A stretch of DNA of 64,000 bases, from assembly GCA_963793265.1 (NCBI GenBank), contig CAWBZI010000001.1:640001-704000 (forward strand), written 5' to 3'. Position numbers and translations under genes: made by a program. Positions 5,820 to 64,000 of this stretch are shown piece by piece. The stretch comes from an uncultured cyanobacterium. GTDB lineage: Bacteria; Cyanobacteriota; Cyanobacteriia; Phormidesmidales; Phormidesmidaceae. Each line of letters starts with the position of its first letter. Within the stretch, counting starts at the first letter, position 1. A model generated the notes under the pieces. It ran no database searches, was not told the DNA's origin, and saw only the letters and a list, made by a program, of their open reading frames with translations.

Positions 5820-8609
5820 TTACACCATTTCAGACTGCTTAGCGGCAGGTTGTGGCTGTGGTTGGAACTGGAAGAGGGTGTAGACTACGTTCCGGCGGAT
5901 GCCTGTCATCATATCGAGGAAGACCTCGTAGCCTTCGCTCTTGTATTCGATGAGGGGGTCTTTTTGGCCGTAGCCGCGTAGGCCGACGGTTTCGCGGAGG
6001 GCGTCCATTTGCTGAAGGTGCTCGCGCCAGAGGTTGTCGATTTGCTGGAGGATGAAGAAGCGCTCAGCTTCGCGCATGAGGCCGGGCTTGATCATGTCAA
6101 CCTGCGCTTCTTTGAGGTCGTAGGCGATGCGAACCTGCTCTGCAAGGAAGGTTTTCATTTCACCCATGGAAAGGTTCTCTAGCTGGTCGGGAGTGAGGTC
6201 AGCGAGTAAGTAGATGAACTCTTGGACTTTGCTGACGACGCTGGCGAGATCCCATTCCTCTGAGGGCAGTTCGGGGTTGACATAGGCTTCTACGATGTCG
6301 TCCATCGTTTGCTCGGCGTAGGCTAGCACTAGCTCTTTTAGCTCTTTGCCTTCAAGTACACGGCGGCGCTCGGCGTAGATAGCGCGGCGCTGGTTGTTCA
6401 TTACCTCGTCGTATTCAAAGACTTGCTTACGGATGTCGTAGTAGTAGGTTTCTACTTTCTTTTGTGCGCCTTCGAGCGATCGCGTCAACATCCCCGATTC
6501 GATCGGCATGTCTTCTTCTACGCGGAAAGCATTCATCAGCCCGGCGACGCGATCGCCGCCAAAAATCCGCAGTAGATTATCTTCCAAGCTCAAGAAAAAC
6601 TTCGTCGAACCAGGATCACCCTGACGACCGGCCCTACCTCTAAGCTGATTATCCACCCGGCGAGACTCGTGACGCTCAGTACCAATCACGTGCAGTCCGC
6701 CTAGCTCAATGACACTATCATGAGCGGCTGAGGTAATAACCTCATATTCATCTAGCACACGGTTATAAACGTCTCTGAGCTTTTGAATTACCGGATCGCT
6801 AGTCGGCGCTTTCTCAGCAGCAACTGCAATTTTATCTTCAGCAGCTAGCTCCGAAAGGCTCTGCTCACCATAGGTTTGCGCGGCAAAAGAAACCGCTTCC
6901 TTCAGGGCTTCTTTGGTCTGTGGCGCTAAATCTGTAGGGAAGATCTGTGGCGCAACTTTCCAGGTTTTTGGCTTTTTGCCATCACCGAAGCCTTGAATAG
7001 ACTTTCCATTCTTAGCGGCTGCCACTTGAGCAACGCCAAACTTTTCGTCCTTCTCAGGCTTAACCAGTCGAGGCATGAAGTACTCGCGCACTTTCAGTCT
7101 CGCCATATAGTCAGCGTTACCACCCAAGATGATGTCGGTACCTCGGCCTGCCATGTTGGTGGCGATTGTCACTGAGCCGCTGCGTCCGGCCTGAGCGACG
7201 ATTTCTGATTCGCGCTCTACGTTCTCGGGTTTTGCGTTTAGCAGGTTGTGCTCTACGTTGAGTTCTTTGAGCAAGATGGAGAGGACTTCGGATTTTTCTA
7301 CGCTGGTGGTGCCGACGAGTACCGGGCGACCCGTTTCGTGCATTTCAGCGCATTCTTGGGCGATCGCATTCCACTTCGCGTTCTCAGTTTTATAAACCAC
7401 GTCTGGCAGATCACGCCGCTGCGAAGGGCGGTTTGTTGGAATAATCGTGACTTCCAAGTTGTAAATCTTTTCAAATTCAGCCTCTTCAGTTTTTGCCGTA
7501 CCCGTCATCCCTGAGAGCTTTGGATAGAGCAAAAAGAAGTTCTGGTAGGTAATAGAAGCCAGCGTTTGCGTCTCAGGCTGGATCTCTACGTGCTCTTTGG
7601 CCTCAATCGCCTGGTGCAGGCCATCGCTCCAACGGCGACCGGCCATTACACGTCCGGTAAATTCGTCTACGATCACAACTTCGCTATCGCGAACAATGTA
7701 GTTTACGTCTTTAGTAAATAGTTCCTTTGCCTTAAGCGCATTAAAAATGTAGTGCGCCCAGGGGTCTTTAGGATCGAATAGGTCAGTTACGTTTAGAAGC
7801 TGCTCGGCTTTCTCAAAGCCTTCATCGGTGAGCAGTACGTTGCGGGCTTTCTCATCAACTTCGTAGTCAACCTCATCGCCTTCTAGCTGAGCTGCAACCT
7901 CAGCCGCCTGCGTGTATTTCTCACCGGGGCGCTCTATTTGGCCTGAAATGATTAGAGGCGTCCTTGCCTCATCAACCAGAATTGAGTCCACTTCGTCGAT
8001 GACGCAGAAGTTAAACGGGCGCTGTACAACGTCCGCCATCTGCGTACTCATGTTGTCGCGCAGATAGTCGAAACCAAATTCGCTGTTGGTACCGTAAGTA
8101 ACGTCGCAGGCGTAGTTTCTCTTACGATCAGCGGGACTCATACCCTGCTGAATAAGGCCAACGCTCAAGCCTAAGAAGCGGTGAACCTGACCCATCCACT
8201 CAGCGTCACGCCGGGCTAGGTAGTCGTTTACCGTGACAACGTGAGCGCCTTTGCCTTCAATCGCATTTAGATAGACAGGCAGGGTAGACACCAGGGTCTT
8301 ACCTTCACCTGTTTTCATCTCGGCAATTTGCCCGTCGTGCAGCACCATGCCGCCGAGCATTTGCACGTCGTAGTGGCGCATTCCTAACACGCGCTTACCG
8401 GCTTCGCGTACAACCGCAAACGCTTCGGTCAAAATGTCGTCAGTGTCTTCGCCGTCTTTTAGCCGCTGCCGAAACTCCGCAGTTTTGCCCGTTAGCTCAG
8501 CATCAGAGAGCGCCTGCATTTCTTCTTCGAGCAGGTTGATCTCTTTGATATCGGGCTGGTAGCGCTTGAGCTTACGGGTATTAGGGTCGCCTAAAAGTCT
8601 TTTTAGCAT
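5820..8609 (-). CDS. secA: Preprotein translocase subunit SecA
   Basis: [28 protein letters not shown] and [11 protein letters not shown] motifs. Confidence 0.99.
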
Positions 8610-8995
8610 GTCAACAGCAAGGAAACGGCGGGCGGATATTATTGTATCTAACTAATCTTATGAGCGGGTAAGGCTTCGGTGGAAGAGGGTATTCCGGGCG
8701 GGTTACCCTACAAAGGTTACTGTTAGTACTAACCGTATCCCCTGAAAATGGTACCACCTGAAGGGTTGTGCTGGGGTTACGTAGGGCTGCGCTCGGGCGA
8801 ATTCTTCTATGGCTCGCCAAGTTAGGAGAAAGTCAGGAAAGCCTTACTTTTATAGCAGCAAGGTTTCTGCATAGCCACTATCCTTTACTAGAAAAGTAAA
8901 GGTATTTATTACAAACGCTCAGACTTGAATTCGGCAAGATTTTATCTGGCGTTCTTTTCCACTTCTTATGGAGGCCCAGCCGGGTTATTCGGTTT

Positions 8996-9487
8996 ATGGA
9001 CAGTCGGCATATTCAGTTTCAATACACACAGGTGTTTACGCCCGATCAGCTCACGCAACTGTGCGATTTGTTTAAGCTGGCTGCTTTTTGGGCTACAGAG
9101 AGACGGCCTTCGGAAATGGCACGGGCGATCGCTAACAGCAAACCCGTGGTCACCGCCTGGGACGATGAAAAACTAATCGGCTTCTCACGCGCTACCACCG
9201 ATGGCGTTTTTCGCGCTACGATTTGGGACGTTGTAATCCATCCTGACTACAGAGGCGCAGGGCTCGGTCGCAGACTGGTAGAGACATTAATCGCGCACCC
9301 TCATATGAATAAGGTGGAGCGAACTTATTTGATGACCACTCACCAGCAGAGCTTTTACGAGCGCATTGGGTTTGAAGAAAACAGTACGACGACGATGGTG
9401 CTGCACAATCAACTGATTGCAGAGCGCCTGACAGAAGTCGCGGCAGCTCATGGCATAGCCGTAGAGGTAGGCGTAGAGCGAGGCTAA
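8996..9487 (+). CDS. GNAT family N-acetyltransferase
   Basis: IWDVVIHPDYRGAGLGRRL acetyl-CoA-binding motif. Confidence 0.9.
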   Translation: MDSRHIQFQYTQVFTPDQLTQLCDLFKLAAFWATERRPSEMARAIANSKPVVTAWDDEKLIGFSRATTDGVFRATIWDVVIHPDYRGAGLGRRLVETLIAHPHMNKVERTYLMTTHQQSFYERIGFEENSTTTMVLHNQLIAERLTEVAAAHGIAVEVGVERG

Positions 9488-9494
9488 ACAGTTT

Positions 9495-9746
9495 TTATTC
9501 GCCTGCTTCTTCAGCCTCAATTTTTTCGCGAGAGTCGCCCCAATAAGCGCTATAAATCCATTCTTCGTTGGGGCCTTTGTCTTCGGTGCGCCAGCGGTAG
9601 ATGACGCCTTTGTTGGGGTTGACGCCGACTTCTAGCAGCTTAGCTCCCATGTAGTATTCGGTTTGCTTGAGGGTGCGATCGCGAAAAAACTGACTTTCTC
9701 GCTTAGAAATTGTCTTAGAGATATGAGCCTGGGTAGGTTTTGCCAT
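9495..9746 (-). CDS. Conserved cyanobacterial hypothetical protein
   Basis: MAKPTQAH...YYMGAKLLEVGVNP...WIYSAYWG; ATG at 9746 preferred. Confidence 0.75.
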   Translation of the reverse strand: MAKPTQAHISKTISKRESQFFRDRTLKQTEYYMGAKLLEVGVNPNKGVIYRWRTEDKGPNEEWIYSAYWGDSREKIEAEEAGE

Positions 9747-9803
9747 GGTTCTAACTACGACCAAAAGTGACCGAAGGGATAGTCAAAAAAATAATTATAT
9801 AGA

Positions 9804-10577
9804 TTAAAGCGCCCACTCCAAATTGATGCCAACTCGGCTGTCGCCTTCATCCGCCGTGCTTTGCCACTCTAGATCGGTTGAGAGCCGTAAATTTCGAGTG
9901 ACTGCGTAGCCAAAGTTTAGCTGGGTAATGCTGAGCCCTTCGCTGTCGCCCACTATCCAGGATTGATCAAGCGTGATGTCGGCTGCGCCTGTGCGAGAAG
10001 GAACAACGCGCAAACGAACGCCGAGGTTTGCGCCGCTCACGCTGTAGTCGCTGGCAGATTTTGCGTAACGGTAGCCGACAGTGGGGGCGACGTTGAAGTA
10101 GCCGCCTAAAGGTAGGACGTAGTAGTGCAGGTCGGTGCCGTAGGCTTGGCGATCGCCCCTAAAATTCTGCTGATAGTCAGCGCTTACCGTCAGCGGCGTA
10201 TTGCCAATAAAAACATCTTCAACACCGACTAAAAAGCCACTCGTACCGTCCGAAGATGGAAAGTAGCTATAACCAGCCTGGAGTCGCGTTACAAAGCTAG
10301 GGTCGTTTCGGATATCGGCTCGAACGTCGGGCACTTTCTCTAGCCAGCGCTGCAAAACCGGACTCTGTTCAATAATCTCTGGCGTGAGGTTCAAAGGCCC
10401 CGTAGGCTCAGCAGATTCGGTAGGATCAGTAGTAGATTCAGCGGGCGTAGCAAGCGCAGGAGAGAATGAAGGTTCTAATGGGTTAGCAAAAGCAGCTGTA
10501 GGGAGAAGGGCGATCGCGCCTACCGTGGCAAAACGCCCTACCGACAGACAACCCATCAAAAGTTTCTGATAATTCAT
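9804..10577 (-). CDS. Hypothetical exported protein with an outer-membrane beta-barrel-like C-terminus
   Basis: Signal peptide, alternating hydrophobic strands, C-terminal VGINLEWAL. Confidence 0.7.
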   Translation of the reverse strand: MNYQKLLMGCLSVGRFATVGAIALLPTAAFANPLEPSFSPALATPAESTTDPTESAEPTGPLNLTPEIIEQSPVLQRWLEKVPDVRADIRNDPSFVTRLQAGYSYFPSSDGTSGFLVGVEDVFIGNTPLTVSADYQQNFRGDRQAYGTDLHYYVLPLGGYFNVAPTVGYRYAKSASDYSVSGANLGVRLRVVPSRTGAADITLDQSWIVGDSEGLSITQLNFGYAVTRNLRLSTDLEWQSTADEGDSRVGINLEWAL

Positions 10578-10629
10578 GGGCCTAGCCTATCCCGCTCACT
10601 AACAAAAGTCAGCCCGCTAGACCAAAAGC

Positions 10630-11895
10630 CTACAAGAAGGCCATTGGATTTACCGGCTCGCCGCCCTGCCGCACTTCAAAATGGAGGTGAGGGCCAGTAG
10701 AAAGCCCAGTTGTGCCGATTGCCGCAATCACATCGCCTTTCTTCACGGCCTGACCTTCATACACATCTAGCCGACTGGCGTGAGCATAAAGCGTCGTCAC
10801 CCCGCCGCCGTGCTCAAGAATCACCGCATTACCGTAGCCGCCGTACCAGCCTGCATATATCACAACCCCTGTTTCTGCAGCCTGAATCGGACTGCCGTGC
10901 TCAGCGCCAAAGTCAGTACCCGCATGAAAACGGCTGTAGCCCAGTACTGGATGGAACCGACTCCCAAAATTACTGGTGATAGGCCCCTGGCTAGGCATTA
11001 GCATTTTGCCTGAGTTGCGAGCCGCCCGTAGCGCTTCTTCGCGAGCAATCTTGGCATCGGCAGCATTCGCCGCTGCGACGCGCTCTAAAATCAGCGATGT
11101 AATATTGTCGGAGTCTTTGTCTAGCTGTTTGATTGCCGCTGAGAGTGCGCCTCTATTTTCTCGCAGGCGCTCCATCGTCACTGCCTGCTGCTGAAGCTGT
11201 TCGGTGTATTGGGCGCGACTCGCCATAAGCTGCTGGCGGAGTAAGGAGATATCGTTTTTTTGCTGTTCGACGCCTTCTTGCTGCGCCACAATCTCAACGG
11301 ACTGAGCGTCTAAATCAACCAGCGTATCGCGATCAGACATGTAGACTCGTTTTAGCCGATAGCGTCTGTCTAAAAAGCTGTTGAGGTCGCTGCTTTGTAA
11401 AAGTAACGCCCAGCCCTGAGCTGCCTGCTGACGCTGCATGAACTGAAGCCGTCCGACGACAGCGGTGCGAGACTGCTCATACACCTGCTTATTGGCTTCT
11501 AAATCAAGCTCTAGGCGGTTGAGCCTCTCTTCGGCTTCGGCGAGCTGATATTCGGTGTCTGTGATCCAGGCGTCGGTGCCTTGAATGGTTTTAGAAAGAT
11601 CGCGCAGCTTTTTGTTGCCCTGATCTTCTGCCTTTTGATAGCGCTCGTCAGTTTTGCTGTGGGTGTCGAGCTGCTGATCGATTTGGTCGCGTTGCTGGCG
11701 GAGCTGTTCTAGCGTGGGAGGCGATTGGGCCTGCGTGGCTGTTGGCGTGAGTGTGACTGAGACTAGCCAGAGGGCGATTGCGATCGCCACAACAAAACTC
11801 AGATATTTCTGCCAGCGACTTAAATACTTTTGCCAACGGCAATGCAGCAAGACCATTATTTTCTCAAATCCAAGTTTAGAGCGCGCATTTCTCAA
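10630..11895 (-). CDS. M23 peptidoglycan endopeptidase / EnvC-like coiled-coil protein
   Basis: Long coiled coil plus HAGTD and HLHFEVR M23 motifs; true start probably near 11856. Confidence 0.92.
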   Translation of the reverse strand: MRNARSKLGFEKIMVLLHCRWQKYLSRWQKYLSFVVAIAIALWLVSVTLTPTATQAQSPPTLEQLRQQRDQIDQQLDTHSKTDERYQKAEDQGNKKLRDLSKTIQGTDAWITDTEYQLAEAEERLNRLELDLEANKQVYEQSRTAVVGRLQFMQRQQAAQGWALLLQSSDLNSFLDRRYRLKRVYMSDRDTLVDLDAQSVEIVAQQEGVEQQKNDISLLRQQLMASRAQYTEQLQQQAVTMERLRENRGALSAAIKQLDKDSDNITSLILERVAAANAADAKIAREEALRAARNSGKMLMPSQGPITSNFGSRFHPVLGYSRFHAGTDFGAEHGSPIQAAETGVVIYAGWYGGYGNAVILEHGGGVTTLYAHASRLDVYEGQAVKKGDVIAAIGTTGLSTGPHLHFEVRQGGEPVNPMAFL

Positions 11896-12563
11896 AGCAC
11901 CAAGGCGGTAATTCCAAAGCTCAGAATCAGTATTCCAAAGACTTTAGTTGACCAGCGATTGAACGTTGCTAGCCGTTGCGGCGTGAGTCGATTGCGCAGG
12001 TAAATCACACCTGAGACTAGCACTAACCACCATGCTGCTGAGCCCGTAAATACGCCAGCCACAAGGGTTACAGAAGTTAGCGTGCGCGTTTGCGTAATAC
12101 CTAATCCGGCGAAGATTGCGATGAAAGAGAAGATGGTTGCCGGGTTGGTTAGGGTTAGTCCTAATGTGGAGATGTAGGCGGAGAATGTGGATAGGTTTGG
12201 AGATTTGGGAAGGTCGGGAGATTTGGGGGTTGAGGATGTGCTGCCCGAGACATTCGACAAGTCCGCATCAGAAAAGTCTGTTTTAGAGAAGAAGGTAGTT
12301 AGTCCTAAATAGCAAAGGAATAAGCCACCGATTATTTGTAGATAGTTTGAGTACGTTACTAGCGCGTTAGAAATGGCGCTTAGCCCGAAAGCGGCGACTA
12401 TGCCGTAGAAACCATCGGCAGTCGCCGCGCCTAGCCCGGTTACTAACCCCACCAAACGACCCTGGCTGAGCGTACGGCGGATGCACAGTACGCCAATTGG
12501 GCCGACCGGGGCAGCGATCGCAACTCCCATCAAAACGCCTTTCAACAAAATCAAAATCAGCAC
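11892..12563 (-). CDS. LysE family amino-acid exporter
   Basis: IAAPVGPIGVLCIRR and LTLTNPATI motifs; GTG at 12563 follows a GAGGAGG SD. Confidence 0.9.
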   Translation of the reverse strand: MLILILLKGVLMGVAIAAPVGPIGVLCIRRTLSQGRLVGLVTGLGAATADGFYGIVAAFGLSAISNALVTYSNYLQIIGGLFLCYLGLTTFFSKTDFSDADLSNVSGSTSSTPKSPDLPKSPNLSTFSAYISTLGLTLTNPATIFSFIAIFAGLGITQTRTLTSVTLVAGVFTGSAAWWLVLVSGVIYLRNRLTPQRLATFNRWSTKVFGILILSFGITALVL

Positions 12564-12594
12564 AATTTCCTCCTCAAGCTTGCGCATCGAGTAA

Positions 12595-13056
12595 CTAACT
12601 TTTCTCAACCGGCAGCACTACCGCATCTTTCACTGTCGAAAGCGCAATCGTCGTCCGAGTCTGTTGAATGCCTGGCAACGCCTTTAGTCCTTCACTCAAA
12701 AACTGCTCTAAAGCAGCCGTAGAACGACAGCGCACTTTGAGTAGGTAGTCGCTATCGCCTACGACGTGATGGCATGACTGGACGCTGCTGTGCGATCGCA
12801 CATACGCCACAAACCCTTGACGATACTGAGGGTGCTCTAGCGTGACAGCCACAAACGCTGTTAAATCAACCCCCAAAGCCTCCGCACTTAGCCGCGCTGC
12901 ATAGCCAGTGATAATGCCTGCACCTTCTAAGCGACGGACACGATCAGCGATCGCAGGAGCCGACACCCCGAACTGATCGGCCAAAGACGACCACCGCACC
13001 CGACCGTCTTGCATCAACGCCGCCAATATCTTGCGGTCAAGTTCATCAATATCCAT
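12595..13056 (-). CDS. Lrp/AsnC family transcriptional regulator
   Basis: DELDRKIL..L..DGR HTH and RVRRLEGAGIITGY; directly upstream of lysE. Confidence 0.93.
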   Translation of the reverse strand: MDIDELDRKILAALMQDGRVRWSSLADQFGVSAPAIADRVRRLEGAGIITGYAARLSAEALGVDLTAFVAVTLEHPQYRQGFVAYVRSHSSVQSCHHVVGDSDYLLKVRCRSTAALEQFLSEGLKALPGIQQTRTTIALSTVKDAVVLPVEKS

Positions 13057-13344
13057 AAATCTATTTTTCTAAATCTAAATCACGCTAGATAAATTACTTA
13101 TAGCGCTTAAATTCCTAAAACGGGAAATTAAATAATCTTTATATGAAAAATAGGTTTATATAAAAAGATAAAGGATATGTGATGAAGCCGTTCCATCTCA
13201 TGTAGGAGGGGCGACAATCTGGGTAAATAAGTAGCAGTCGTACCCGTGCATCTGGCACATGGATCGCTGACAAACGTCACAAAATGGTAATGGCAGCAAT
13301 TCATAACTCAGCCAGCGCATCTACCTTTCAACATCCACATATTT

Positions 13345-14787
13345 ATGATCGGGAATCTTACTCAAGCCCTCGAACACATCGATCTCCCCGCCGATTGGAT
13401 TGGCATTAGAGCAAATAAAGAATCAAGTAGCTGGCGAGCGATGCGCGACGGTCGTCCGCAGCAAAACGAAAGAGGACTCAGCCAAGGCGCAATGGTTGAA
13501 GTGCTGGTGCAGGGGCAGTTTGGCTACAGCGCTACTAATCAGCTCACGACAGAAGCCTTGAAAGATGCTGCCAAAAGAGCTTACGAGCAGGCGCTAGAGA
13601 CGAGTCAGTGGGCAATCCATCGATTTACTCAGGCCGTGCGCCCGCAGGTTAAGGGCGAGTACATTTCTCCTTATCAGCAGGCTTTAGACTCGCTAAGCGT
13701 GGGCGATATTAATGACTTGCTGCGTAAGCTTTGCGAGCAGATGAAAGTATCGGATGAGATTGTGCGCACCAGTGCGATCGCGCGTAGTCATGAGGTGGAA
13801 TCCTGGTTTGTCAGCACGAATGGCTCTGAGGTGTACCAAAAGCTGGTGATGTTGGAGAGTCATTTAGGGGCGATCGCACAAGCCCCCGGCGTCACACAGT
13901 CCCGCTCAGACAACGGTTACCTAGCCCGCAGCTATCAAGGCGGCTGGGAGCTAATGTCAGGCTCAGACCTTTGGGATCGCGCTGCTCGAATTGGTACGCA
14001 GGCTGTAGAGCTGCTTAGCGCACCAGATTGTCCTGAAGAGGTGACAACTTTGGTACTCGCGCCCGACCAAATGATGCTTCAGCTTCACGAGAGCGTCGGT
14101 CATCCGCTAGAGCTAGACCGCATTTTAGGAGACGAGCGCAACTATGCAGGCGGCAGCTTCGTACAGCCCAAAGACTTCGGCAGTTTGGTGTACGGTTCGC
14201 CGCTGATGAACGTCACCTTCGACACGACGAAAGCGGGCGAAATTGCTAGCTATGGCTTCGATGACACTGGAACACCTGCCGAGAAACAATATTTGATTCG
14301 CGAAGGCGTTCTACAGCGCGGACTCGGGGGGCTTGAGAGTCAGGCGCGGCTAGATGTGCCTGGTGTTGCCTGCACACGGGCCTGTAGCTGGAACCGTCCG
14401 GCAATCGACCGTATGGCTAACATCAATTTGGAGCCGGGAGACACGGACTTCGAAACGATGATTAGCAGCATCGAATCTGGCGTTTATATGGAATCCAATC
14501 GCTCTTGGTCGATTGATGACCAGCGGCATAAGTTTCAATTTGGCTGTGAATACGCGCGAAAAATCGAAGACGGCAAGCTGACGACGCCGCTCAAAAATCC
14601 TAACTACCGGGCCACGACGCCTCAGTTCTGGGGCAGCTTGGTTCAGATCGGCAACGGTCAAACTTTGGAAACTTACGGTACGCCCTACTGCGGTAAAGGC
14701 GAGCCTAATCAGCTTGTTCGCGTCGGCCACGCATCGCCCGTTTGTGCGTTTGAAAATATTGAAGTTTTTGGAGGCGCTAAAGCATGA
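13345..14787 (+). CDS. tldD: TldD family metalloprotease
   Basis: HESVGHPLE zinc motif, RMANINLEPG and CGKGEPNQ. Confidence 0.92.
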   Translation: MIGNLTQALEHIDLPADWIGIRANKESSSWRAMRDGRPQQNERGLSQGAMVEVLVQGQFGYSATNQLTTEALKDAAKRAYEQALETSQWAIHRFTQAVRPQVKGEYISPYQQALDSLSVGDINDLLRKLCEQMKVSDEIVRTSAIARSHEVESWFVSTNGSEVYQKLVMLESHLGAIAQAPGVTQSRSDNGYLARSYQGGWELMSGSDLWDRAARIGTQAVELLSAPDCPEEVTTLVLAPDQMMLQLHESVGHPLELDRILGDERNYAGGSFVQPKDFGSLVYGSPLMNVTFDTTKAGEIASYGFDDTGTPAEKQYLIREGVLQRGLGGLESQARLDVPGVACTRACSWNRPAIDRMANINLEPGDTDFETMISSIESGVYMESNRSWSIDDQRHKFQFGCEYARKIEDGKLTTPLKNPNYRATTPQFWGSLVQIGNGQTLETYGTPYCGKGEPNQLVRVGHASPVCAFENIEVFGGAKA

Positions 14788-16205: not shown

Positions 16206-16234
16206 CTCCGCCTAGCATTTGCCCTTGAAACTCG

Positions 16235-53365: not shown

Positions 53366-53818
53366 TCACCTGTCAGCGTCAGGCAATCTCTGCACTTCTA
53401 CATCAATCGTCGTCGCTGAGGTATCGCCAAGTTCTACCGGTGTACTCTGCACATTCGATGCCTGCACATCCACCGCCTGAATATCAATCACCCCTTCAGG
53501 GGCCGACCGCTCAAATCCATCGCCCGTCACCGCCAGCTCTGTACCGCAATTAGGACAAGGCATCTTTGAATTTTTCAGGCCCGCCAGCGTCTGAGAACAA
53601 ACCGGACAGCTCCCGTTAACCAAGTTGCGCTTTACCCAAAACTGAAGGGCAAAAAAGGCTAGGACAGGTGCGAGTACTACAAACAGCACAATCGCGAAAA
53701 CTGACTTAATCAGGCCGCCAATACCGATCGCCCCAATCAGCCAGAATGCACCCAGAACAAACAGCCAGCAGCCCAAACCGGGAAATCGAACCTGTAGCTG
53801 ATTAAAATTTTGATTCAC
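53366..53818 (-). CDS. Membrane protein with a Zn-ribbon (hypothetical)
   Basis: Two TM helices plus CPVC...CPNCG. Confidence 0.78.
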   Translation of the reverse strand: MNQNFNQLQVRFPGLGCWLFVLGAFWLIGAIGIGGLIKSVFAIVLFVVLAPVLAFFALQFWVKRNLVNGSCPVCSQTLAGLKNSKMPCPNCGTELAVTGDGFERSAPEGVIDIQAVDVQASNVQSTPVELGDTSATTIDVEVQRLPDADR

Positions 53819-53924
53819 GGTTGTCGTACCTCACCAGTGAGGAAAATTACTTCGATGTATACACCCCATCGTAGTGCTAAGCACAACCAGCGCAAAGCTG
53901 GCAAACCGTACCAATCTTGCCAAA

Positions 53925-55043: not shown

Positions 55044-55044
55044 C

Positions 55045-56034
55045 CTACTTAGCTCCTACAGGGGCAACGGTTCCAGCCTTTAAACGCGCCAGATCCGCCT
55101 GCACCATTTTAGCTACCAATGCCTCGAAACTAACCTGAGGCTCCCAGCCTAAATTCTGCTTAGCCTTCGTTGGATCGGCCACAAGCTGAAAGTGCTCATC
55201 CTCCCGAATCAGTCCCGGATCGACTTCCGCATACTTCTGCCAGTCCAAATCAACGCAGTCAAAGGCAGCAGCCACCAAATCTCGAACCGTATGCAATACG
55301 CCCGTACCAATCACGTAGTCTTCAGCCTGCTCAGCTTGGAGCATTCGCCACATAGCCTCCACATGATCGCCTGCAAACCCCCAGTCCCGTTTGGCGTCTA
55401 AGTTACCGATTGAGAGGCGATCGCTCAACCCTAATTTGATAGAGGCTGCTGCCAAGGAAATCTTACGGGTGACAAACTGCGGCGGACGGCGCGGCGACTC
55501 GTGGTTGAATAAAATGCCGCTACAGGCAAATAGATTGTAGCGATCGCGATGATGAACCATTGTCCAGTGGGCATGTAGCTTTGCAGCGCCATAAGGATTC
55601 TTGGGTCGAAATGGCGTTTCAGATGTCTGTGGAGCAGATTGAACATCGCCAAAGATCTCTGAAGAACTCGCCTGATAGAACCGAGTCGGCAGTCCTAACT
55701 GCCGCGTGGCACTCAACAGCCGAGTCGCCGTACCTGTGACTAAATCAAGCGTACCGAGCGGATCTTCCCAGGAAGCAGGCACAAAACTAGGCGCAGCTAA
55801 GTTGTAAATCTCAGTCGGCTGTAACTGCTTTACCGCCTTAGTGAGCGCCGCCGCATCGGTCAAATTCACTGCATAGATCTCAACCTGATCGGCTAGATCA
55901 TCCAGTTTTGCAACGCTACTTTGCCGTGCAGGCGGCACCAGTCCGACAACGCGGTAGCCCTTACCCAACATCAACCGGCTCAGGTAGTAGCCATCCTGCC
56001 CCGTTATCCCCGTGATCAGTGCAGTTTTCGTCAT
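55045..56034 (-). CDS. gmd: GDP-mannose 4,6-dehydratase
   Basis: ITGITGQDG, QASSSE, YGAAK and FNHESPRR. Confidence 0.92.
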   Translation of the reverse strand: MTKTALITGITGQDGYYLSRLMLGKGYRVVGLVPPARQSSVAKLDDLADQVEIYAVNLTDAAALTKAVKQLQPTEIYNLAAPSFVPASWEDPLGTLDLVTGTATRLLSATRQLGLPTRFYQASSSEIFGDVQSAPQTSETPFRPKNPYGAAKLHAHWTMVHHRDRYNLFACSGILFNHESPRRPPQFVTRKISLAAASIKLGLSDRLSIGNLDAKRDWGFAGDHVEAMWRMLQAEQAEDYVIGTGVLHTVRDLVAAAFDCVDLDWQKYAEVDPGLIREDEHFQLVADPTKAKQNLGWEPQVSFEALVAKMVQADLARLKAGTVAPVGAK

Positions 56035-56146
56035 AGGCTTTTTAAATAGTCAGGCGTACGGAACCAAAAGTAGAGCAATCTCAATCGGCCTCAAGGTTCC
56101 ATTTAATACTGTGCGGCAGGCGATCGCGACACCGCAACCCTATAGT

Positions 56147-56680
56147 TCACACAATCTTTGACGTTTTTACAATTCTCAGGCGGTTGCGCTGAACTTGGGA
56201 ACGCGCTTGCGATCGCTCTATCTGCTCTGGCGTGTTCTGGTCTATTGCCGTCTGCTCAGAATCATAGGTAACCTGATCGGCTAGTCTACGCAGCAAAAAC
56301 CAGCCATAGCCCCCCTCTCTTAATGATCCAGGTTCCGGTTCATTGAGACTTTCAGGGTCAAAAGGAGGCCCCTGATCCAAAATATGAATTTCAATAATAT
56401 TAGCGTTAGACTTGCCAAGCTGAACCCAAAGCTCCACCTCAATCGGCGTACTGCTAGGAAGCTCGGCATGTGCGTGTCGAACAGCATTGGTAAAGCCTTC
56501 AGCCAGCGCCAGGTTCAACTTATCAAACTGACGATTGAGCGAAGGATACTCTGCTGCTAAGTCATTGTATAGAGCTTGAAACCACTTCTGTACAGTTGAT
56601 AGCTCTTCTAAATGGCTGCTGACCGATAGACGAGCCTGTTTATGCATCTTTCTAAATTCAGCGCTCCTTGTACGTTTCAC
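56147..56680 (-). CDS. RsbW-like anti-sigma factor / HATPase_c Ser kinase
   Basis: LALAEGFTNAVRHA, DQG and GGYGWFLL. Confidence 0.88.
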   Translation of the reverse strand: MKRTRSAEFRKMHKQARLSVSSHLEELSTVQKWFQALYNDLAAEYPSLNRQFDKLNLALAEGFTNAVRHAHAELPSSTPIEVELWVQLGKSNANIIEIHILDQGPPFDPESLNEPEPGSLREGGYGWFLLRRLADQVTYDSEQTAIDQNTPEQIERSQARSQVQRNRLRIVKTSKIV

Positions 56681-56747
56681 CTTAACTAGATAATGTCGAA
56701 TTTGTAGTTGTGCTTCATTAAAGCAACCTTAGCAGTCATTCAATATG

Positions 56748-56783
56748 AAAATCGCCCAGATTCCGAAGAGTCTGAGCGATTTT
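56748..56783 (-). terminator. petBD terminator hairpin
   Basis: AAAATCGCCCAGA...TCTGAGCGATTTT. Confidence 0.6.
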
Positions 56784-56840
56784 GAGCTTTAGAAAGGCAT
56801 ACATACCTTACAAAAGAAGAAGTCTAATGCTTCCGTACGC

Positions 56841-57323
56841 TTAGAAAAGACCCAGCGTCAAAGAAGTGTCGATCGGGAACGTAGCGCCAATACCCAGCCA
56901 TAGCGTTGCAAATGTACCAAACAGGAACACAGCCGTTGCAATAGGGCGACGGAATGGGTTTTGGAACTTGTTGACGTTCTCAATGAAGGGAACAAGGATC
57001 AGGCCCAAAGGAATAGCCGTCATTGCTGCAATCCCTAGCAGCTTGTTAGGCAGTACGCGCAGCATTTGGAACGTTGGGTACAGGTACCACTCAGGCAAAA
57101 TTTCCAGCGGCGTTGCAAATGGGTTTGCAGGCTCGCCAACCAAAGCAGGATCAAGAACTGCTAGACCTACGCAGCAGGCAATCGTACCCATGATTACGAT
57201 TGGGAAAACGTAGAGAAGGTCGTTAGGCCAAGCGGGCTCACCGTAGTAGTTGTGACCCATGCCCTTCTTGAGCTTCTCTCTGAGCATAGGATCGGTTAGA
57301 TCTGGCTTCTTGAGAATTGACAT
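56841..57323 (-). CDS. petD: Cytochrome b6f subunit IV
   Basis: [14 protein letters not shown] and PEWY. Confidence 0.99.
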
Positions 57324-57491
57324 CGATATACTTCCTAAAAATTAATGACACCAACAGCTAGTACTTAGTTTAGCCTGAGCCGTTACACCTCTAACACCTT
57401 CATAGGAAAGATTAACTGCATAACGGCCCTGGCTTATACCGAGTAGTCGCGAGCGCTGGCAACACGCGACTCAAATCTTCAAATCGCGCCT

Positions 57492-58160
57492 TTACAAGGG
57501 GCCAGAGATGCCCTGCTTGCGAATCATAATGAAGTGCAAAAGCATGAAGACGGCGATGAACCATGGCAATACGAACGTATGCAGGCTGTAGAAACGAGTA
57601 AGCGTTGCTTGACCTACACTCTCGCTACCACGCATCAGCTCAACAATGGTGCTGCCGACAACCGGAATGGCGCTAGGCACACCCGATACAATCTTCACAG
57701 CCCAGTAGCCAACCTGATCCCAAGGGAGAGAGTAGCCAGTCACGCCGAAAGAAACGGTGATAACCGCGAGGATTACGCCCGTGACCCAAGTTAGCTCACG
57801 GGGCTTTTTGAAGCCGCCTGTGAGGTACACGCGGAACACGTGCAGGATCATCACAAGCACCATCATGCTGGCGCTCCAGCGGTGAACAGAGCGAATGAGC
57901 CAGCCGAAGTTTACATCGGTCATGAGGTACTGCACGGAAGCAAATGCGTCCGTTACAGTAGGCCGATAGTAAAAGGTCATCGCAAAGCCAGTGGCAAATT
58001 GGATGATGAAGCAGACGAGGGTGATCCCTCCCAAGCAGTAGAAGATGTTGACGTGGGGCGGAACGTATTTGCTAGAAATATCGTCGGCCAGCGCCTGGAT
58101 TTCTAGCCGCTCATCGAACCACTGATAGGTTTTGGAGTCGGTGACTTGCTTAGTAAACAT
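57492..58160 (-). CDS. petB: Cytochrome b6
   Basis: MFTKQVTDS start, [15 protein letters not shown] and KQGISGPL. Confidence 0.99.
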
Positions 58161-58573
58161 GAAGCAAAAATTTATGTCTGAAGGGTTTGTACCAATACTA
58201 AAAAATGTAACACAGTCAAAGGGTTCCAACCCAGTAAGCGCGGCAATAGTTGGCGATAGACTCAGCTCTATCTGAGCGGAACCATCAATTTTTCTCTCAG
58301 GATTCCTCTCGTAATTTGCGTACTCTTGGCGCTCTCAGGGCGTTTTTGACAGACAAATCAGTATCACTCCAAACAATTTGGAAGGCAACTTTAAGAAAAA
58401 CAAATATTTCGTATACTTTACATACCTTCATAGAAGCCGTCTGACAGATAGGACGTTGGCGAGAAAGGGTGAGATATTTGCGATCGCCCAGTCACTTTCA
58501 AGTCAGGCTGTATCTTAGTAAAGAGGGCACTTTCATTAATGATGTTATTGGCTTGAGACGTTTGCTGAACTTT

Positions 58574-59915
58574 ATGAGAAGACGGATTTTTCGAGCGGTG
58601 GCGGCGGTAGGTTTGACAATCACACTTTGGAGTAGCTCACTGCTGGTAGGCTCACTCGGCCTGTCAAACGGTGTGCCAAACAGCTTACTTAGTCGTATAG
58701 ATACCGCTGGAACCGCGCTGGCCTTTACCAATCAGCAGCAGATGGTGATGGAGGTGTGGCGCATCGTTAACCGTAGCTACGTCGATGAAACGTTTAATCA
58801 TCAAAACTGGTGGTTTTTGCGGCAGAAGGTGCTGCGTAAGCAACTGCCAACCTGGGATGAGACGTACACTGCCATTCAAGAAATGCTGGCCGTGCTAGAC
58901 GACCCTTACACGCGCTTTTTACCGCCTGAGCAGTATCAAAGCTTGCAGACAAATACGAACGGTGAGCTGCTGGGCGTAGGTCTACAAATTGCTAAGAGCG
59001 AGGAAATGGCGAATCTGCGAGTGATCGCGCCCATCGAGGGATCGCCAGCGGAGGCCGCAGGCATTTTGCCTCAAGATGAAATCTTAGAGATTAACGGGAC
59101 GCCGACAAACAGTATCAGCTTGGATGAGGCCGCTGCTCGGATGCGGGGATCGATTGGTAGCCAGGTGGCTTTGAAGGTGGGCAGGGAAGGTCAGGAGCCT
59201 TTTGAAGTGAGTGTGAGACGCGATCGCATCGAAATCAATCCTGTCTCAGCCGAGCTACGCGCAGAAGCCGGTTTGCCTAAGCTAGGCTACGTGCGGCTTG
59301 GACAGTTCAACGGCAATGCCGCCGATGAGCTGAAGTCATCACTTAAAGACTTGGAGAAGCAGGGAGCTGACGCCTACATTCTGGACTTAAGAAATAACCC
59401 TGGCGGGCTGCTCAACGCGGGCATTGAGATTGCTAGGATGTGGATGGACGAAGGCACCGTAGTTTATACCGTGAACCGTCAGGGCGGGCTCGGTAACTAC
59501 GACGCTATTGGTAAGGCAATTACAGACGATCCGTTAGTTGTGCTGGTGAATAAAGGCACCGCTAGCGCCAGTGAAATCTTAGCGGGCGCTTTGCAAGATA
59601 ACGGACGGGCACAGCTCGTGGGAGAAACGACGTTTGGGAAAGGTCTAATTCAGTCGTCTGTTCGATTTGCCTAATGGAGCGGGGCTAGCGGTAACCATCG
59701 CTAAATACGAGACGCCGAATCATCACGACATTAATAAGCTCGGTATTACGCCTGATGAAACGGTAGAGACTTCTGTGGAGCTGCGAAAGCAGTTTGGCAC
59801 GGAGGAGGATGCGCAGTATAGAGCAGCGATCGCCCTACTCTCAAAGTCGTTTGGCTTAGAGCAAACCGAGTCAGAAACACTGGCCGCAAAACCCCTAGCG
59901 GCGGCGCAGAAGTAA
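58574..59915 (+). CDS. ctpA: Carboxyl-terminal processing protease (S41), with a +1 frameshift near 59657 (probable sequencing error)
   Basis: PDZ, DLRNNPGG, TASASE and TFGKG; deleting one base gives QSLFDLPNGAGLAVT; divergent from petBD as is usual. Confidence 0.9.
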
Positions 59916-59919
59916 ACCC

Positions 59920-61194
59920 GTGACCGGAACCACTCGCACCTACCACGACCCGCTCCACGGTGCGATTACGCTAAACACCGCTGACCCTGTAGAAGCGCTG
60001 CTGACGAAGCTAATAGAAACTAGCGCCTTTCAACGGCTGCGGCGAATTCGGCAGCTTGGGCCAGCGAGCCTGGTTTTTCATGGGGCAGAAATGTCTCGGT
60101 TCACCCATTCACTGGGCGTGATGGCCGTCGCGCGTAGGGCCTTTGATCGCTTGGCTAGTCTGCATCCCGAACTGCTGGAGCATCGAGCCACGGTGTTGTG
60201 TGCGGCGCTACTACACGACATTGGGCATGGGCCTTTTAGCCATACTGCCGAAGAGGTATTTGGCTCTCATCACGAAGAATGGACGATGGCGATTGTGGCG
60301 CGATCGCCCGAAGTACGCACTCTGTTAGATAGCTACCACCTCGATCTATGGCAATGGATCAGCCAGTCTTATGAGCACACCCATCCTGTACCCTGCGTGT
60401 GGCAGTTGGTGTCTAGTCAGTTGGATTGCGATCGCATCGACTACCTCATGCGAGACAGCTATTTCACAGGCGCTTCTTACGGCCAGCTCGATCTCGACCG
60501 AATTTTGCTCGCGCTCAACTACGACCCAACCAATCAACAGCTCGTCGTAGAGCGAAAAGGCTTAGCGGCAATTGAGCACTACTTAGTCGTGCGCTCATTC
60601 ATGTACGCCCAAATTTACAACCATCCGAAGAACCTCTCAGCGACCTGGGTACTAGAGCAGGTTTTTAGCCGCGCGCGCGAGCTAATGAAACGGGGCGAGC
60701 TAGAGGCCGATCCCACCGTGACCGACTGGCTACTCAAACCCATGCAAGAAATTTCTCTATCGCGATATTTAGAAAGCGACGATATCGTCTTTACCTATCA
60801 CGTGCAGCGCTGGCAGCACCACAACGACCCTACCCTGTCTGACTTTTGCAGCAGATACCTCAATCGCAGGCTGCTTAAAGCACTAGAAGTAACCTACGCA
60901 ACGCCTGATGAGCAAGAAAAATTGCTAGCGAACGTACAGCAGCAGCTAGCCGACGAAGGCGTTGAAGCCCATCGATACAGCGGCCTTCGCGACACTTGGA
61001 GTAAGGGCTATAAGATCTATCAAGAAGGCATCAAAATTAAGACCAGGCGCGGGCTGATAGAGATCAATCAGCTTTCGCCTTTAGTTCAAACACTGGCTAA
61101 GCCTGCGCAGCGAACCTGGCTAATTTATCCGAGTGAAGTCGCGGTGGAAGTGTGCCCGTTGCCTGAAGAAAGCGTGGATATGCCCGCCGATTAG
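59920..61194 (+). CDS. HD domain phosphohydrolase (dNTPase-like)
   Basis: FQRLRRIRQLG, RFTHSLG, LLHDIGHGPFSH and DCDRIDYL. Confidence 0.92.
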   Translation: MTGTTRTYHDPLHGAITLNTADPVEALLTKLIETSAFQRLRRIRQLGPASLVFHGAEMSRFTHSLGVMAVARRAFDRLASLHPELLEHRATVLCAALLHDIGHGPFSHTAEEVFGSHHEEWTMAIVARSPEVRTLLDSYHLDLWQWISQSYEHTHPVPCVWQLVSSQLDCDRIDYLMRDSYFTGASYGQLDLDRILLALNYDPTNQQLVVERKGLAAIEHYLVVRSFMYAQIYNHPKNLSATWVLEQVFSRARELMKRGELEADPTVTDWLLKPMQEISLSRYLESDDIVFTYHVQRWQHHNDPTLSDFCSRYLNRRLLKALEVTYATPDEQEKLLANVQQQLADEGVEAHRYSGLRDTWSKGYKIYQEGIKIKTRRGLIEINQLSPLVQTLAKPAQRTWLIYPSEVAVEVCPLPEESVDMPAD

Positions 61195-61198
61195 GCTT

Positions 61199-61951
61199 TT
61201 ACAATCCAGCAGAAGCCATCTTCAAAGCCTCCCAATCAACAGATTGGAGCTGGGTATAAGCTTGAGCAATCTTTTTCTCACCACGTAGAAAGCCGGTGCT
61301 AGCGCCTGGGCAAATGTAGCTGAGATTGTCAGGGGTGAAGTCGATGAGAAGCTGCTGAGCGTGGCGGAGTTGACGCGGCCAGTGGAAGGTTTTTGAAAGT
61401 CGGAGCGGAGCGGGTATGCCTTCGCGGGTGGGGAGTAGGTGACGGCCCGTGAAGAGGATGCCACCGCGGCTGCTGTGATAGAGGCAGGCGGAGCCGGGGG
61501 AGTGTCCGGGATTCCAGACGACGCGGCTGGTAGGGGAAAGCTGGTGATCGCGATGAAATGTCTCAGTTTTTACAGTGGGCAGCAAGTACGCCTCCTGCTC
61601 TTGAATGAGCACCTGGCAGTCAAATACTTTTTGAAACTCAGGCACCTGTGCCATACCGCCGCGATGCGTGATAAACAGCGTGCTGATGCCGCCGCTTGCT
61701 GTGATGAAATCTTGATGCGTTTCATTCAAGGCGGGGCAGTCCACGAGGATGTTGACGCTGTTACCTGCTGCGTCTTTTTCGCAGATGAGATAGGCCGTGC
61801 CGCCTAGCGTTTCGCGGTTTGGCGGGAAAGCAAAAATGTCAGGGGCATCACGGGAGATATCACGGGAGATATCACCGGGGATATCGCTGGGGGCATCCGC
61901 TGTCGAAGCAGATGTAAAAACAGGCTGGGGGGCTTTGGTCGAAACCGGCAT
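61199..61951 (-). CDS. MBL-fold metallo-hydrolase
   Basis: FPPNRETLGGTAY, ITHRG and PGHSPGS. Confidence 0.85.
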   Translation of the reverse strand: MPVSTKAPQPVFTSASTADAPSDIPGDISRDISRDAPDIFAFPPNRETLGGTAYLICEKDAAGNSVNILVDCPALNETHQDFITASGGISTLFITHRGGMAQVPEFQKVFDCQVLIQEQEAYLLPTVKTETFHRDHQLSPTSRVVWNPGHSPGSACLYHSSRGGILFTGRHLLPTREGIPAPLRLSKTFHWPRQLRHAQQLLIDFTPDNLSYICPGASTGFLRGEKKIAQAYTQLQSVDWEALKMASAGL

Positions 61952-62047
61952 GGGTGAGCGCTCTAAATAAAAAGAAAAGGCTGAGTGACTGACCTACAAT
62001 GTGTCAAGTATGCAGTTATTGCAAATGCGATCGCGAGCGAAGTTTTC

Positions 62048-63625
62048 ATGCCTCTTGTTTTACTGGCTCTGTTTTTAGGATTAGTAACCTATTTGGTGAT
62101 TAGCCGTAGCTTCACCAATATGACCACAACGCCCATCTGGATGCTCTGGCTGGTGATGATGACACCTGTGCTAGTGCTAACCCTATGGATGTTGATCAAT
62201 GGAGAAGAGCCACCGCCCCCTATTTTGATCTACGGCCTGCTAATTTTGTGCCCGCTGCTGTACGCGGTGATGATTATGGTAGGCACCTCTAGTCAAAAAG
62301 GTAAGTCGGGGAAAAAAGACGCCGCTGGTGATAAAACGCTGGCACAGAAAACGGCTCAAAATCAGGTCAAGGCTCAGCCCAAGGCGAAGACAAAGCCAAT
62401 CACCAGGGATGAAGAGACGTTACTACAACGATGCTTTCCCTGGTCAATTTACTACCTGCAAGATATTGAATATCGCCCTCAAGCGATGATCTGCAAGGGT
62501 AAGCTCAAAACGTCGCCCGGTGAAGCGTATCAGGCCGTTCAAGAAAACGTAGAGAGCAGCTTTGGCGATCGCTTCCTGGTGCTTTTTCAGGAGGGTCTAA
62601 ACGGCATTCCTTTCTTTGCCCTCGTGCCTAACCCCCAGTCTAAAACGCCGCCCGTCCCGGTTCCACCCGACGCCGACGCCGCTGAGGCTAATCCCATTAA
62701 GGAGATACAGGCAGCTCATGCGGCTCGCCTCCGAAAGTTAAATGAATCAAAGCTAACGCGCCCAGGGCTGGCGATCGCACTGGCAATTACAACCCTGGTC
62801 ACCACCACCTTTGCAGGCATCGCCTTTATCGGCGGCGTGGAAGATCCACAGGCGCTTCAAGCCGACCCGACGCTACTAAGACAGGGATTTGCCTACGGCC
62901 TCTCGTTGATGTTCATTTTGGGCGTTCATGAAAGCGGCCATTATCTGGCAACGCGCTATCACAAGCTCAGATCTACGCTGCCGTATTTTATTCCAGTCCC
63001 TTTCTTTTTGGGCACATTTGGCGCGTTTATTCAGATGCGATCGCCCATGCCCAACCGCCGAGCCCTATTCGATATCGGCATTTCAGGCCCGCTCTCAGGC
63101 TTAGTCGTCAGCCTCCCCATTTTGTTTTGGGGATTAGCCAATTCCACCATCGTGCCGTTAGGCGACGAGTCTCAGCTTTTTACCTTTGAAACGCTTGATC
63201 CAAGCCGTTCGCTACTGCTACTTGTCATTAGCAAGATAGCCTTGGGCAGCGCGCTATTAGCCGACAGTGCGATCAACCTGCATCCACTCGCCATATCAGG
63301 CTGCTTGGGTCTGATCGTCACGGCCCTAAACTTGATGCCTGTTGGGCAGCTAGACGGTGGTCACATCGTTCATGCGATGTATGGACAGCGAACAGCGGCA
63401 ATCGTGAGCCAGGTGGCTAAGCTGCTGATGCTGCTACTGTCTTTTGCCTATCAGGAGTACTTCTTGTGGGCGATATTGCTGCTGTTTATTCCGCCCGCCG
63501 AGCCTGCTCTTAACGATGTGAGCGAACTCAATGGGCCCCGTGACTTTTTAGGGCTCGCTGCCTTAGCCCTGTTGGTGCTGATTATTTTACCTGCGCCTGC
63601 CTCACTGTCCAGGCTGCTGTTTTAA
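62048..63625 (+). CDS. Site-2 protease family (M50) protein
   Basis: HESGH and NLMPVGQLDGG. Confidence 0.93.
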   Translation: MPLVLLALFLGLVTYLVISRSFTNMTTTPIWMLWLVMMTPVLVLTLWMLINGEEPPPPILIYGLLILCPLLYAVMIMVGTSSQKGKSGKKDAAGDKTLAQKTAQNQVKAQPKAKTKPITRDEETLLQRCFPWSIYYLQDIEYRPQAMICKGKLKTSPGEAYQAVQENVESSFGDRFLVLFQEGLNGIPFFALVPNPQSKTPPVPVPPDADAAEANPIKEIQAAHAARLRKLNESKLTRPGLAIALAITTLVTTTFAGIAFIGGVEDPQALQADPTLLRQGFAYGLSLMFILGVHESGHYLATRYHKLRSTLPYFIPVPFFLGTFGAFIQMRSPMPNRRALFDIGISGPLSGLVVSLPILFWGLANSTIVPLGDESQLFTFETLDPSRSLLLLVISKIALGSALLADSAINLHPLAISGCLGLIVTALNLMPVGQLDGGHIVHAMYGQRTAAIVSQVAKLLMLLLSFAYQEYFLWAILLLFIPPAEPALNDVSELNGPRDFLGLAALALLVLIILPAPASLSRLLF

Positions 63626-63694
63626 CCGCTTTTTGCCAGCTTTGCCGTAAGCTGCTGAGTAATGAGGATGTGATCGTCAAGAGGAGAATGGTTG

Positions 63695-64000
63695 ATGTCT
63701 CAAGATGTGGCTCAGTGGCTTGCTGAGGTGCAGTCGCTTCAGCGAAAGGTAGCTGAGCTTCAGCAGGAACGCGATCGCGCCTATGCTAGTGCGGACAACC
63801 TACGCAAGCTGTACGAATCAGAGGCGACGCAGCGGCAGCGGGATACTGCCTCGGCGCAGCGAAGGGTGGAGATGTTGGAGAGAGCGGTTGCAGAATTGCG
63901 ATCGCCTCAAGATGAGGGTGATGGCAAGCTAGGGATAGAAATCGCCCGAATCAAAGGCAATTATTCAGTGGAGCAGCTACAGACTCAGCTCGTCGCTGCT
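63695..64000 (+). CDS. Coiled-coil hypothetical protein (partial, runs off the window)
   Basis: GAGGAG SD; MSQDVAQWLAEVQSLQRKVAELQQERDRAYASADNLRKLYESEA... Confidence 0.7.
   Translation, partial: MSQDVAQWLAEVQSLQRKVAELQQERDRAYASADNLRKLYESEATQRQRDTASAQRRVEMLERAVAELRSPQDEGDGKLGIEIARIKGNYSVEQLQTQLVAA

Follow-up and report, generated by a model that had tools for sequence, protein, structure and literature searches.

Strand-polar G/C composition around the HIP1 octamer in a cyanobacterial genome

HIP1 sites and genes of the window

The DNA considered here is a stretch of 64,000 nucleotides (nt), called the window below, from an uncultured cyanobacterium of the Phormidesmidaceae (assembly GCA_963793265.1, contig CAWBZI010000001.1, positions 640,001 to 704,000), which carries among its genes secA (minus strand, 5820-8609), lysE, sir and a plus-strand GDSL lipase gene, and in which the 8-letter palindrome HIP1 (GCGATCGC) occurs in 81 copies. 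A sequence-only reading of this window had claimed that the plus strand is repeatedly G/T-rich before HIP1 and C/A-rich after it, and the 11 HIP1 positions that it named are all correct. The copies, spread over 690..63905, start at 690, 1283, 2942, 3173, 3476, 3791, 3943, 6476, 6549, 7360, 9125, 9675, 10149, 10510, 11780, 12514, 12792, 12947, 13774, 13870, 15046, 15102, 15793, 16637, 16851, 16967, 18704, 19621, 19817, 20160, 20668, 20906, 21252, 22587, 22892, 24988, 25896, 26059, 28121, 28883, 29707, 30149, 30653, 30849, 31269, 34942, 36184, 38949, 39648, 40332, 41723, 42030, 42191, 42425, 45124, 46278, 46314, 47096, 49025, 49053, 49259, 50748, 51450, 51822, 52441, 54837, 55417, 55540, 56120, 56209, 58480, 59220, 59826, 60300, 60428, 62027, 62565, 62771, 63037, 63771 and 63898.

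When 60 nt are counted on each side, the number of G minus C drops across 72 of the 81 sites and rises across 7, and the number of T minus A drops across 56 and rises across 23. On either strand, a HIP1 of the window is on average preceded by a G-rich arm on its 5' side and followed by a C-rich one on its 3' side; the GC skew at fourfold-degenerate sites is +0.38 and -0.58, respectively. The summed statistic for this change of skew across the site (the flip) is 1068, compared with a mean of -3 (standard deviation 75, maximum 286) for 2,000 random placements, that is, about 14 standard deviations away. Since two stretches of the window are matched at about 99% or more by independently assembled public contigs, the flip is not a base-calling artefact.

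Individual sites illustrate the pattern. In secA, the plus strand is G-rich over 5820..6475 (GC skew +0.14) up to the HIP1 at 6476..6483, after which the skew turns to -0.20 over 6484-6900. The 100-nt skew changes from +0.41 to -0.27 across the HIP1 at 11780..11787, and from +0.30 to -0.19 across that in the 3' part of sir (34942..34949), where the longer stretch 34500-34941 stands at +0.19 and is followed by -0.13. Similar changes are found at 40332..40339 (+0.25 to -0.47), at 41723..41730 in the GDSL lipase gene (+0.36 to -0.37) and at 52441..52448 in or near a short open reading frame (+0.28 to -0.29), and the HIP1 at 42425..42432 opens a 1-kb C-rich arm on the plus strand (42433..43433, GC skew -0.34). 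Some of the examples first put forward are weak: the HIP1 at 7360 in secA separates +0.02 from -0.02, with only T/A changing; the HIP1 in lysE (12514..12521) has a clear C-rich 3' arm (-0.53 over 100 nt), yet its G-rich 5' arm (+0.25 over 12120-12513) is broken in the last 100 nt (-0.09); and at 59220 the 3'-side skew is just -0.02. The exception noted at the same time is confirmed, the plus strand at 33150..33600 being C/A-rich (GC skew -0.24, TA skew -0.23) with neither a HIP1 nor a common one-off variant within about 500 nt.

Genome-wide footprint, reach and specificity

The genome (G000, 5.68 Mb in 7 contigs) was analysed with 4,907 genes called with a custom hexamer model, and the best named relative of its SecA is a Phormidesmis record (95% amino-acid identity). 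HIP1 occurs at 1.16-1.35 per kb on 7/7 contigs, with an observed/expected ratio of 39, and the count of G minus C drops across 86.4% of the 6,887 genomic sites vs 45.1% of random points. Fourfold sites located 6-10 nt from the nearest HIP1 carry G at 0.447 and C at 0.114 on the 5' side, and G at 0.112 and C at 0.470 on the 3' side, vs about 0.27 for each of the two bases far from HIP1. The corresponding log-ratios between the 5' and 3' flank strands are +1.01 for G, -1.04 for C, +0.08 for T and -0.05 for A, the T/A shift near HIP1 being mostly borne by twofold and intergenic sites. Because A and T barely differ at fourfold flanks, this is more a G/C flip than a flip from G/T to C/A, and the initial description thus holds for G against C, with T against A a minor component.

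The flip is mirror-symmetric and equal in plus- and minus-strand genes, as had been proposed, and in all three reading frames; intergenic skew is +0.24 on the 5' side and -0.28 on the 3' side. At HIP1 copies set back 150 nt or more from the ends of the gene that holds them it is positive in 1,928/2,262 cases for plus-strand genes and 1,844/2,160 for minus-strand genes, and the argument that flips within genes speak against transcription bias is borne out. Amino-acid use shifts as well, by up to about 0.3 log units (V, M and E increase before HIP1; T, N and H after it); amino-acid composition is nevertheless ruled out as the cause, the effect being largest at fourfold sites and present between genes.

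The skew is not flat with distance, at fourfold or at intergenic sites. It decays on a scale of 69 nt in a single-exponential fit (two scales, of 11 and 85 nt, when two exponentials are fitted), and around isolated HIP1 copies it takes the successive values 0.64, 0.53, 0.43, 0.34, 0.27, 0.21, 0.17, 0.13, 0.13, 0.11 and 0.07 out to 750 nt, with a tail reaching about 600 nt. Between adjacent copies it follows a sawtooth in all 6 gap classes. Both arms are present in 25/25 bins of 250 kb, and the effect is additive to regional skew; the arms have about the same size whether a strand is regionally G-rich or C-rich, so both strands are treated alike. Regional fourfold skew itself, taken far from HIP1 in 50-kb blocks of G000, lies between about -0.26 and +0.21, and its domains, hundreds of kb long, resemble scrambled replichores. 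The base signature of the HIP1 flip equals that of regional skew at fourfold, twofold and intergenic sites, and the dependence of the two on sequence context is correlated over 32 contexts (r 0.63, p 1e-4, at 81-250 nt; r 0.33, p 0.06, at 15-80 nt).

The footprint is real, large and motif-specific. Of the 140 palindromic 8-mers that have 20 sites or more, HIP1 comes first with a z of 103 and the runner-up has 2.5; none of the 64 palindromic 6-mers shows a flip away from HIP1, and profiles around GATC and CGATCG outside HIP1 are flat, so that the control words named in the sequence-only reading set HIP1 apart. Only GTGATCGC among 12 one-off variants retains most of the flip, GAGATCGC and GCAATCGC retaining a little. 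No one-armed flip is seen at seven-base sites that bear the G-C on a single strand (-0.09 on one side and -0.12 on the other, 421 isolated sites, values that may reflect ascertainment). Helical phasing was rejected, with no clear 10-11 nt period in the flank skew, and so was selection for hairpins or cruciforms, mirror positions pairing no more than expected from 4 to 60 nt and less than expected from 1 to 3 nt. An origin in UV or CpG context was likewise set aside, the shift being found in each of the 8 codon boxes and whatever the next base.

Two observations concern palindromes more generally. Extended palindromes are avoided, positions 1-3 on each side of HIP1 pairing below expectation (z -14.5), and several palindromic 6-mers are nearly missing away from HIP1 (CCCGGG 5, GGCGCC 5, GAGCTC 6, GCCGGC 6), a scarcity that suggests restriction avoidance.

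To what extent does the flip extend beyond this genome? It is positive at fourfold sites in 17/17 loci of the genus, with z >2 in 16. A survey of SecA loci in other cyanobacteria covered 78 loci, 32 of which had too few sites and were excluded; of the remainder, with at least 10 HIP1 each, 41/46 are positive (19 with z >2) and 5 negative, in genomes that are related and hence not independent. The pooled flip of Nostocales is 0.47+-0.07 at 3-30 nt. Nodosilinea-like loci (L033-L062) have 0.59+-0.06 at 3-30 nt and 0.10 at 31-80 nt, where this genus has 0.82 and 0.41, and this shorter reach implies that tract length varies by lineage. No flip was detected at the alternative word GGGATCCC in G021. 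One Nodosilinea locus (L071) has 0 HIP1 in 13 kb, together with 24 CCATGG and 6 GCCATGGC, and a further alternative HIP word is possible there. Samples of 50 kb from three cyanobacterial plasmids show no flip (PCC 7002, 0.06+-0.07; PCC 6803, -0.10+-0.11), nor do, in 100-150 kb samples, E. coli GATC (0.03+-0.035 at 663 sites), Chi, or the Neisseria uptake sequence (-0.05+-0.12 and 0.03+-0.09, 45 in-gene copies).

Comparison of the window with public contigs gave some further observations. Few base differences separate them, and in this polymorphism comparison many of those listed come from other organisms. The sulfite reductase gene lies in two frames (window 33206-34432 and 34449-35138), probably owing to an assembly insertion, as contigs of runs X1 and X2 are one base shorter at 34417; the gene of a CtpA-like S41 peptidase (58598-59915) is likewise split, contigs of X2, X3 and X5 being one base shorter at 59656. 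Differences from conspecific contigs pile up at 34658-36342 (28/30 of those listed in 4 kb), which may be a recombined tract judging from this clustering, and the listed pieces of 40001-60000 mostly show 0-3 differences.

Substitution rates, HIP1 decay and gene content

Substitution rates were estimated in a trio of genus members, none of the relatives being close enough to G000: the sisters G009 and G004 (87% identity) and the outgroup G007. Likelihood fits used 2,898 fourfold sites within 40 nt of HIP1, 6,384 within 100 nt and 12,240 far from it, stratified by codon box, with either an equilibrium or a free root. The free-root fits imply that the skew is decaying in each of the three lineages, a result that heterogeneity among sites can mimic, and the equilibrium assumption is plausible since the three tips are nearly equal in composition. 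The trio has a flip size of 0.55-0.67 and shares 255 of 385 aligned HIP1 (a raw count for HIP1 alone).

Pairwise fourfold divergence is flat with distance from HIP1 (0.30-0.32), and the total substitution rate near conserved HIP1 amounts to 0.89-0.92 of that far away. Under both root assumptions, the 5' flank strand has G>C (0.46-0.65 of the far rate), T>C (0.66-0.75) and G>A (0.73-0.90) suppressed, C>T at 0.88-1.01, and C>G (1.17-1.69) and C>A (1.20-2.07) increased. On the 3' strand, the three suppressed types read as C>G, A>G and C>T, corresponding to new G:G, G:T and T:G pairs. Log-likelihood gains within 40 nt are, under equilibrium, 173 for a deamination model, 275 for increases only, 300 for decreases only, 327 for fixation bias, 328 for strand redistribution and 335 for the free model, and with a free root 0, 1.1, 17.5, 13.7, 14.8 and 19.9, respectively. 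The failure of models of the increase type rejects added damage, and is compatible with one-sided repair, strand redistribution or biased conversion. In the fits, the bases of the 5' strand rank as G (1.04), T (0.55), A (0.42) and C (0), the order that the mispair preferences of MutS would lead one to expect.

The variant GTGATCGC is the C>T product at the putatively methylated position of HIP1, the same C being the base methylated in Synechocystis HIP1 (PMC6105098). It is 3.5-fold over-represented and has a flip of 0.67 vs 0.88 for HIP1, as expected if about 72% of its copies are former HIP1 sites, and this over-representation accounts for its flip as that of decayed HIP1. The commonest single change at HIP1 sites lost in the relatives is precisely this one (10/23). 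A mimicry of methyl-C by the T of GTGATCGC is not needed, former sites being sufficient, and the 26 sites of GTGATCAC show neither enrichment nor a flip. Gains and losses of HIP1 involve few sites and are mixed with regains: the flip measures 0.49 at 14 young gains and 0.65 at 27 recent losses. GTGATCGC abounds in the loci of this genus (L001-L017, 31 per 331 HIP1) and is rare in Nostocales (5 per 326), and repair of deaminated methyl-C may differ between the two groups, both of which have a candidate methyltransferase. In G000 this candidate, a putative CGATCG C5 methyltransferase (G000:C4:631026-632336), is conserved in 9/9 genus relatives searched. Methyltransferases of the N6/N4 types, with no assignable target, occur in 22/26 genomes, and Synechococcus elongatus has no CGATCG methyltransferase according to Elhai (PMC4390886).

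Matches to repair proteins in G000 comprise MutS, MutL (with EQHIAHERVLYE, which we take to be an endonuclease-type motif), two RecJ and ExoVII, with no match to MutH, ExoI or NucS. Across 37 genomes, MutS, MutL, RecJ and ExoVII are found in 37/37, ComEC in 35/37, MutH and ExoI in 0/37 (the E. coli MutH control being positive), and NucS-like matches are scattered. Enzyme content was rejected as the cause of species differences, the same repair set being present in flip-negative genomes. ComEC of G000 (G000:C6:84222-85778) has about 519 amino acids, with open frames of 502-545 amino acids in the genus and in G031 and G040, and of 730-830 in most others searched; these lengths suggest that its C-terminal domain was lost in lineages that also have a strong flip.

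Possible origins of the flip and its significance

What process could leave such a footprint? We give an even chance to HIP1 being a one-way start for mismatch correction, with the strand that lies 3' of it corrected 5'->3'. The strand running 3' from HIP1 would be opened at the octamer and trimmed in this direction, so that new bases in G:G and G:T mispairs on it are removed and C:C and C:T mispairs escape; over time the corrected strand would lose G and gain C, and the kept strand the reverse. The suppression of G:G, G:T and T:G pairs on the 3' strand is what leads us to infer a nick at HIP1 with 5'->3' removal, and MutS, MutL, RecJ and methylation would be its probable participants. The mismatches could come from replication errors at half-methylated HIP1 or from heteroduplexes formed in recombination or transformation, and the data separate neither. 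A more specific version, namely a MutH-free and strictly one-directional editing pathway, in which an enzyme opens one strand at the methylated octamer and mismatches lying 3' are resolved in favour of the other, is put forward tentatively, at less than even confidence. Two strands of previous work bear on this proposal: Elhai, following a different line of argument, suggested mismatch repair directed by HIP1 (PMC4390886, section 3.4), and in PCC 7002 transformation is about 100-fold higher with methylated HIP1 (Kamoku and Nielsen, bioRxiv 2024.09.10.611283).

Several results weigh against one-way correction. The A>G rate on the 5' strand is 1.27-1.41 under equilibrium and 0.87-0.93 with a free root, when better repair of one strand gives no rise; the fixation-bias, redistribution and decrease-only models are not separable with a free root; and the rates come from the three relatives rather than from G000. 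The ranking of MutS substrates assumed here, with G:G and G:T the best and C:C the worst, is stated in no paper found. HIP1-rich genomes with MutS and MutL can have no flip (G023, 0.01+-0.03 at 233 sites; G026, -0.05+-0.06; G020, 0.08+-0.07; L041, -0.03+-0.06), the candidate methyltransferase is present at loci with no detected flip (L040, 0.06+-0.12; L082, 0.11+-0.15), and it was not found with the query used where the flip is clear (L042, 0.31+-0.07; L048, 0.38+-0.10). No HIP1-recognising nickase was identified in G000, where the MutH and NucS families were not found. Elhai's version suggests a one-armed flip at 7-mers, and none is seen at the 421 sites. Finally, the regional skew of G000 bears the same base signature, which a cause in the direction of synthesis fits too.

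This last cause is the strongest rival, given that the HIP1 signature equals regional skew and resembles the lagging-template bias of E. coli, and we regard it as rather unlikely. HIP1 would set the local direction of synthesis, lagging-type synthesis (primer, restart or patch refill) starting there on either strand, with the 5' flank strand always as lagging template, and the usual replication asymmetry would thereby be imprinted locally. The correlated context dependence speaks for it, as does the equilibrium estimate of the A>G/T>C ratio, about 2.2, close to the lagging-template bias of 2.44 in repair-defective E. coli (bioRxiv 10.1101/346874); a six-parameter strand-redistribution model fits as well as any, and many cyanobacteria have multiple replication origins (PMC7198777). 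However, Okazaki priming confined to the lagging strand does not fit arms that are equal under any regional skew, the flip has the polarity of a terminus when forks meeting every 800 bp are implausible, and extra synthesis alone should only add errors, when increase-only models fail. Unlikely in turn is selection or molecular drive, whereby uptake or recombination would involve the cutting or engagement of DNA at HIP1, fragments with G-rich 3'-ending strands being favoured and their alleles spreading. An additive fixation-bias model with three parameters gains almost as much as the free model with 12 (327 vs 335) with no raised rate, methylated HIP1 boosts transformation (bioRxiv 2024.09.10.611283), HIP1 abundance follows the uptake machinery (PMC13756078), and ComEC is nearly universal in the genomes searched. 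Against this, the flanks hold no specific word or period, words enriched near HIP1 being mainly pieces of HIP1 itself; the Neisseria uptake sequence has no flip, nor have the plasmids of PCC 7002 and PCC 6803, where HIP1 aids transformation. RecA prefers GT, and T is hardly preferred over A in these flanks.

The mechanism offered in the sequence-only reading, excision or resection from HIP1 exposing the strand of the 5' flank, on which C>T and A>G damage would accumulate, is very unlikely. Its geometry stands, the footprint being anchored at HIP1, strand-polar and weaker farther away, with the 3'-lying strand behaving as the one removed or corrected. The direction is right at twofold sites, where the 5' strand favours T over C and G over A, and A>G is raised under equilibrium. 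The damage itself is largely refuted for the three relatives: substitutions polarised with them show no rise in C>T (0.88-1.04 of the far rate on the 5' flank strand) or in total rate near HIP1, T does not rise at fourfold sites, and the deamination model gains far less than reciprocal bias (173 vs 327 under equilibrium, and 0 with a free root). It is scarcely conceivable, lastly, that the flip is a by-product of codon use, amino-acid motifs, transcription, hairpins or assembly error: the amino-acid shifts near HIP1 would agree with this, but the effect is largest at fourfold sites, extends to intergenic DNA, both gene strands and the three frames, recurs in other genomes, has no mirror pairing, and is not seen at the 139 other palindromic 8-mers or at 64 6-mers.

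One-way correction from HIP1 can be placed among known systems. Elhai's G-methylC-directed repair (PMC4390886) involves the same octamer, with MutS and MutL and no MutH, HIP1 serving as strand signal and the opposite strand being nicked; in the part of that article available, no polarity or flanking skew is predicted and only palindromic extensions of 1-2 bases are listed, and its 7-mer sites should act, when no one-armed flip is seen here. Dam/MutH repair at E. coli GATC is alike in that a methylated palindrome marks the corrected strand, but it is bidirectional (PMC8744996) and leaves no flip at GATC, and here MutH is absent and GATC alone is not the signal. Replication GC skew shares a signature in which G/C far exceeds T/A, together with the context dependence; the HIP1 flip, in contrast, repeats about every 800 bp, has a terminus-like sign, exceeds regional skew and is tied to a word rather than to an origin and terminus only. 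Chi and Neisseria uptake sequences are also over-represented short words, acting in recombination or uptake, but unlike HIP1 they are non-palindromic, and they have no flip in the samples. Pneumococcal Hex repair offers a case of donor-strand-biased mismatch removal, the literature consulted supporting only broad mismatch classes and this strand bias (PMC12606429). No description of flanking skew at HIP1 was found in a full-text literature search, supplements and most subscription papers being outside it; the word 'skew' is missing from the examined text of Xu 2018 (PMC5861425) and Elhai 2015 (PMC4390886), and refers to sampling in that of PMC13756078.

The footprint gives the process acting at HIP1 a direction, a reach of tens to hundreds of bases, a requirement for the full octamer, and a reciprocal rate signature with no extra substitution. 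To our knowledge, HIP1 has been left without an assigned function for three decades. Natural flip-positive and flip-negative lineages help to locate the missing factor, and analyses of codon use, GC skew and selection in these genomes carry a hidden bias at the kilobase scale. If the strictly one-directional editing version is true, it would amount to a motif-anchored and strand-specific biased gene conversion, reshaping codons and amino-acid use at thousands of sites and perhaps maintaining HIP1 itself.

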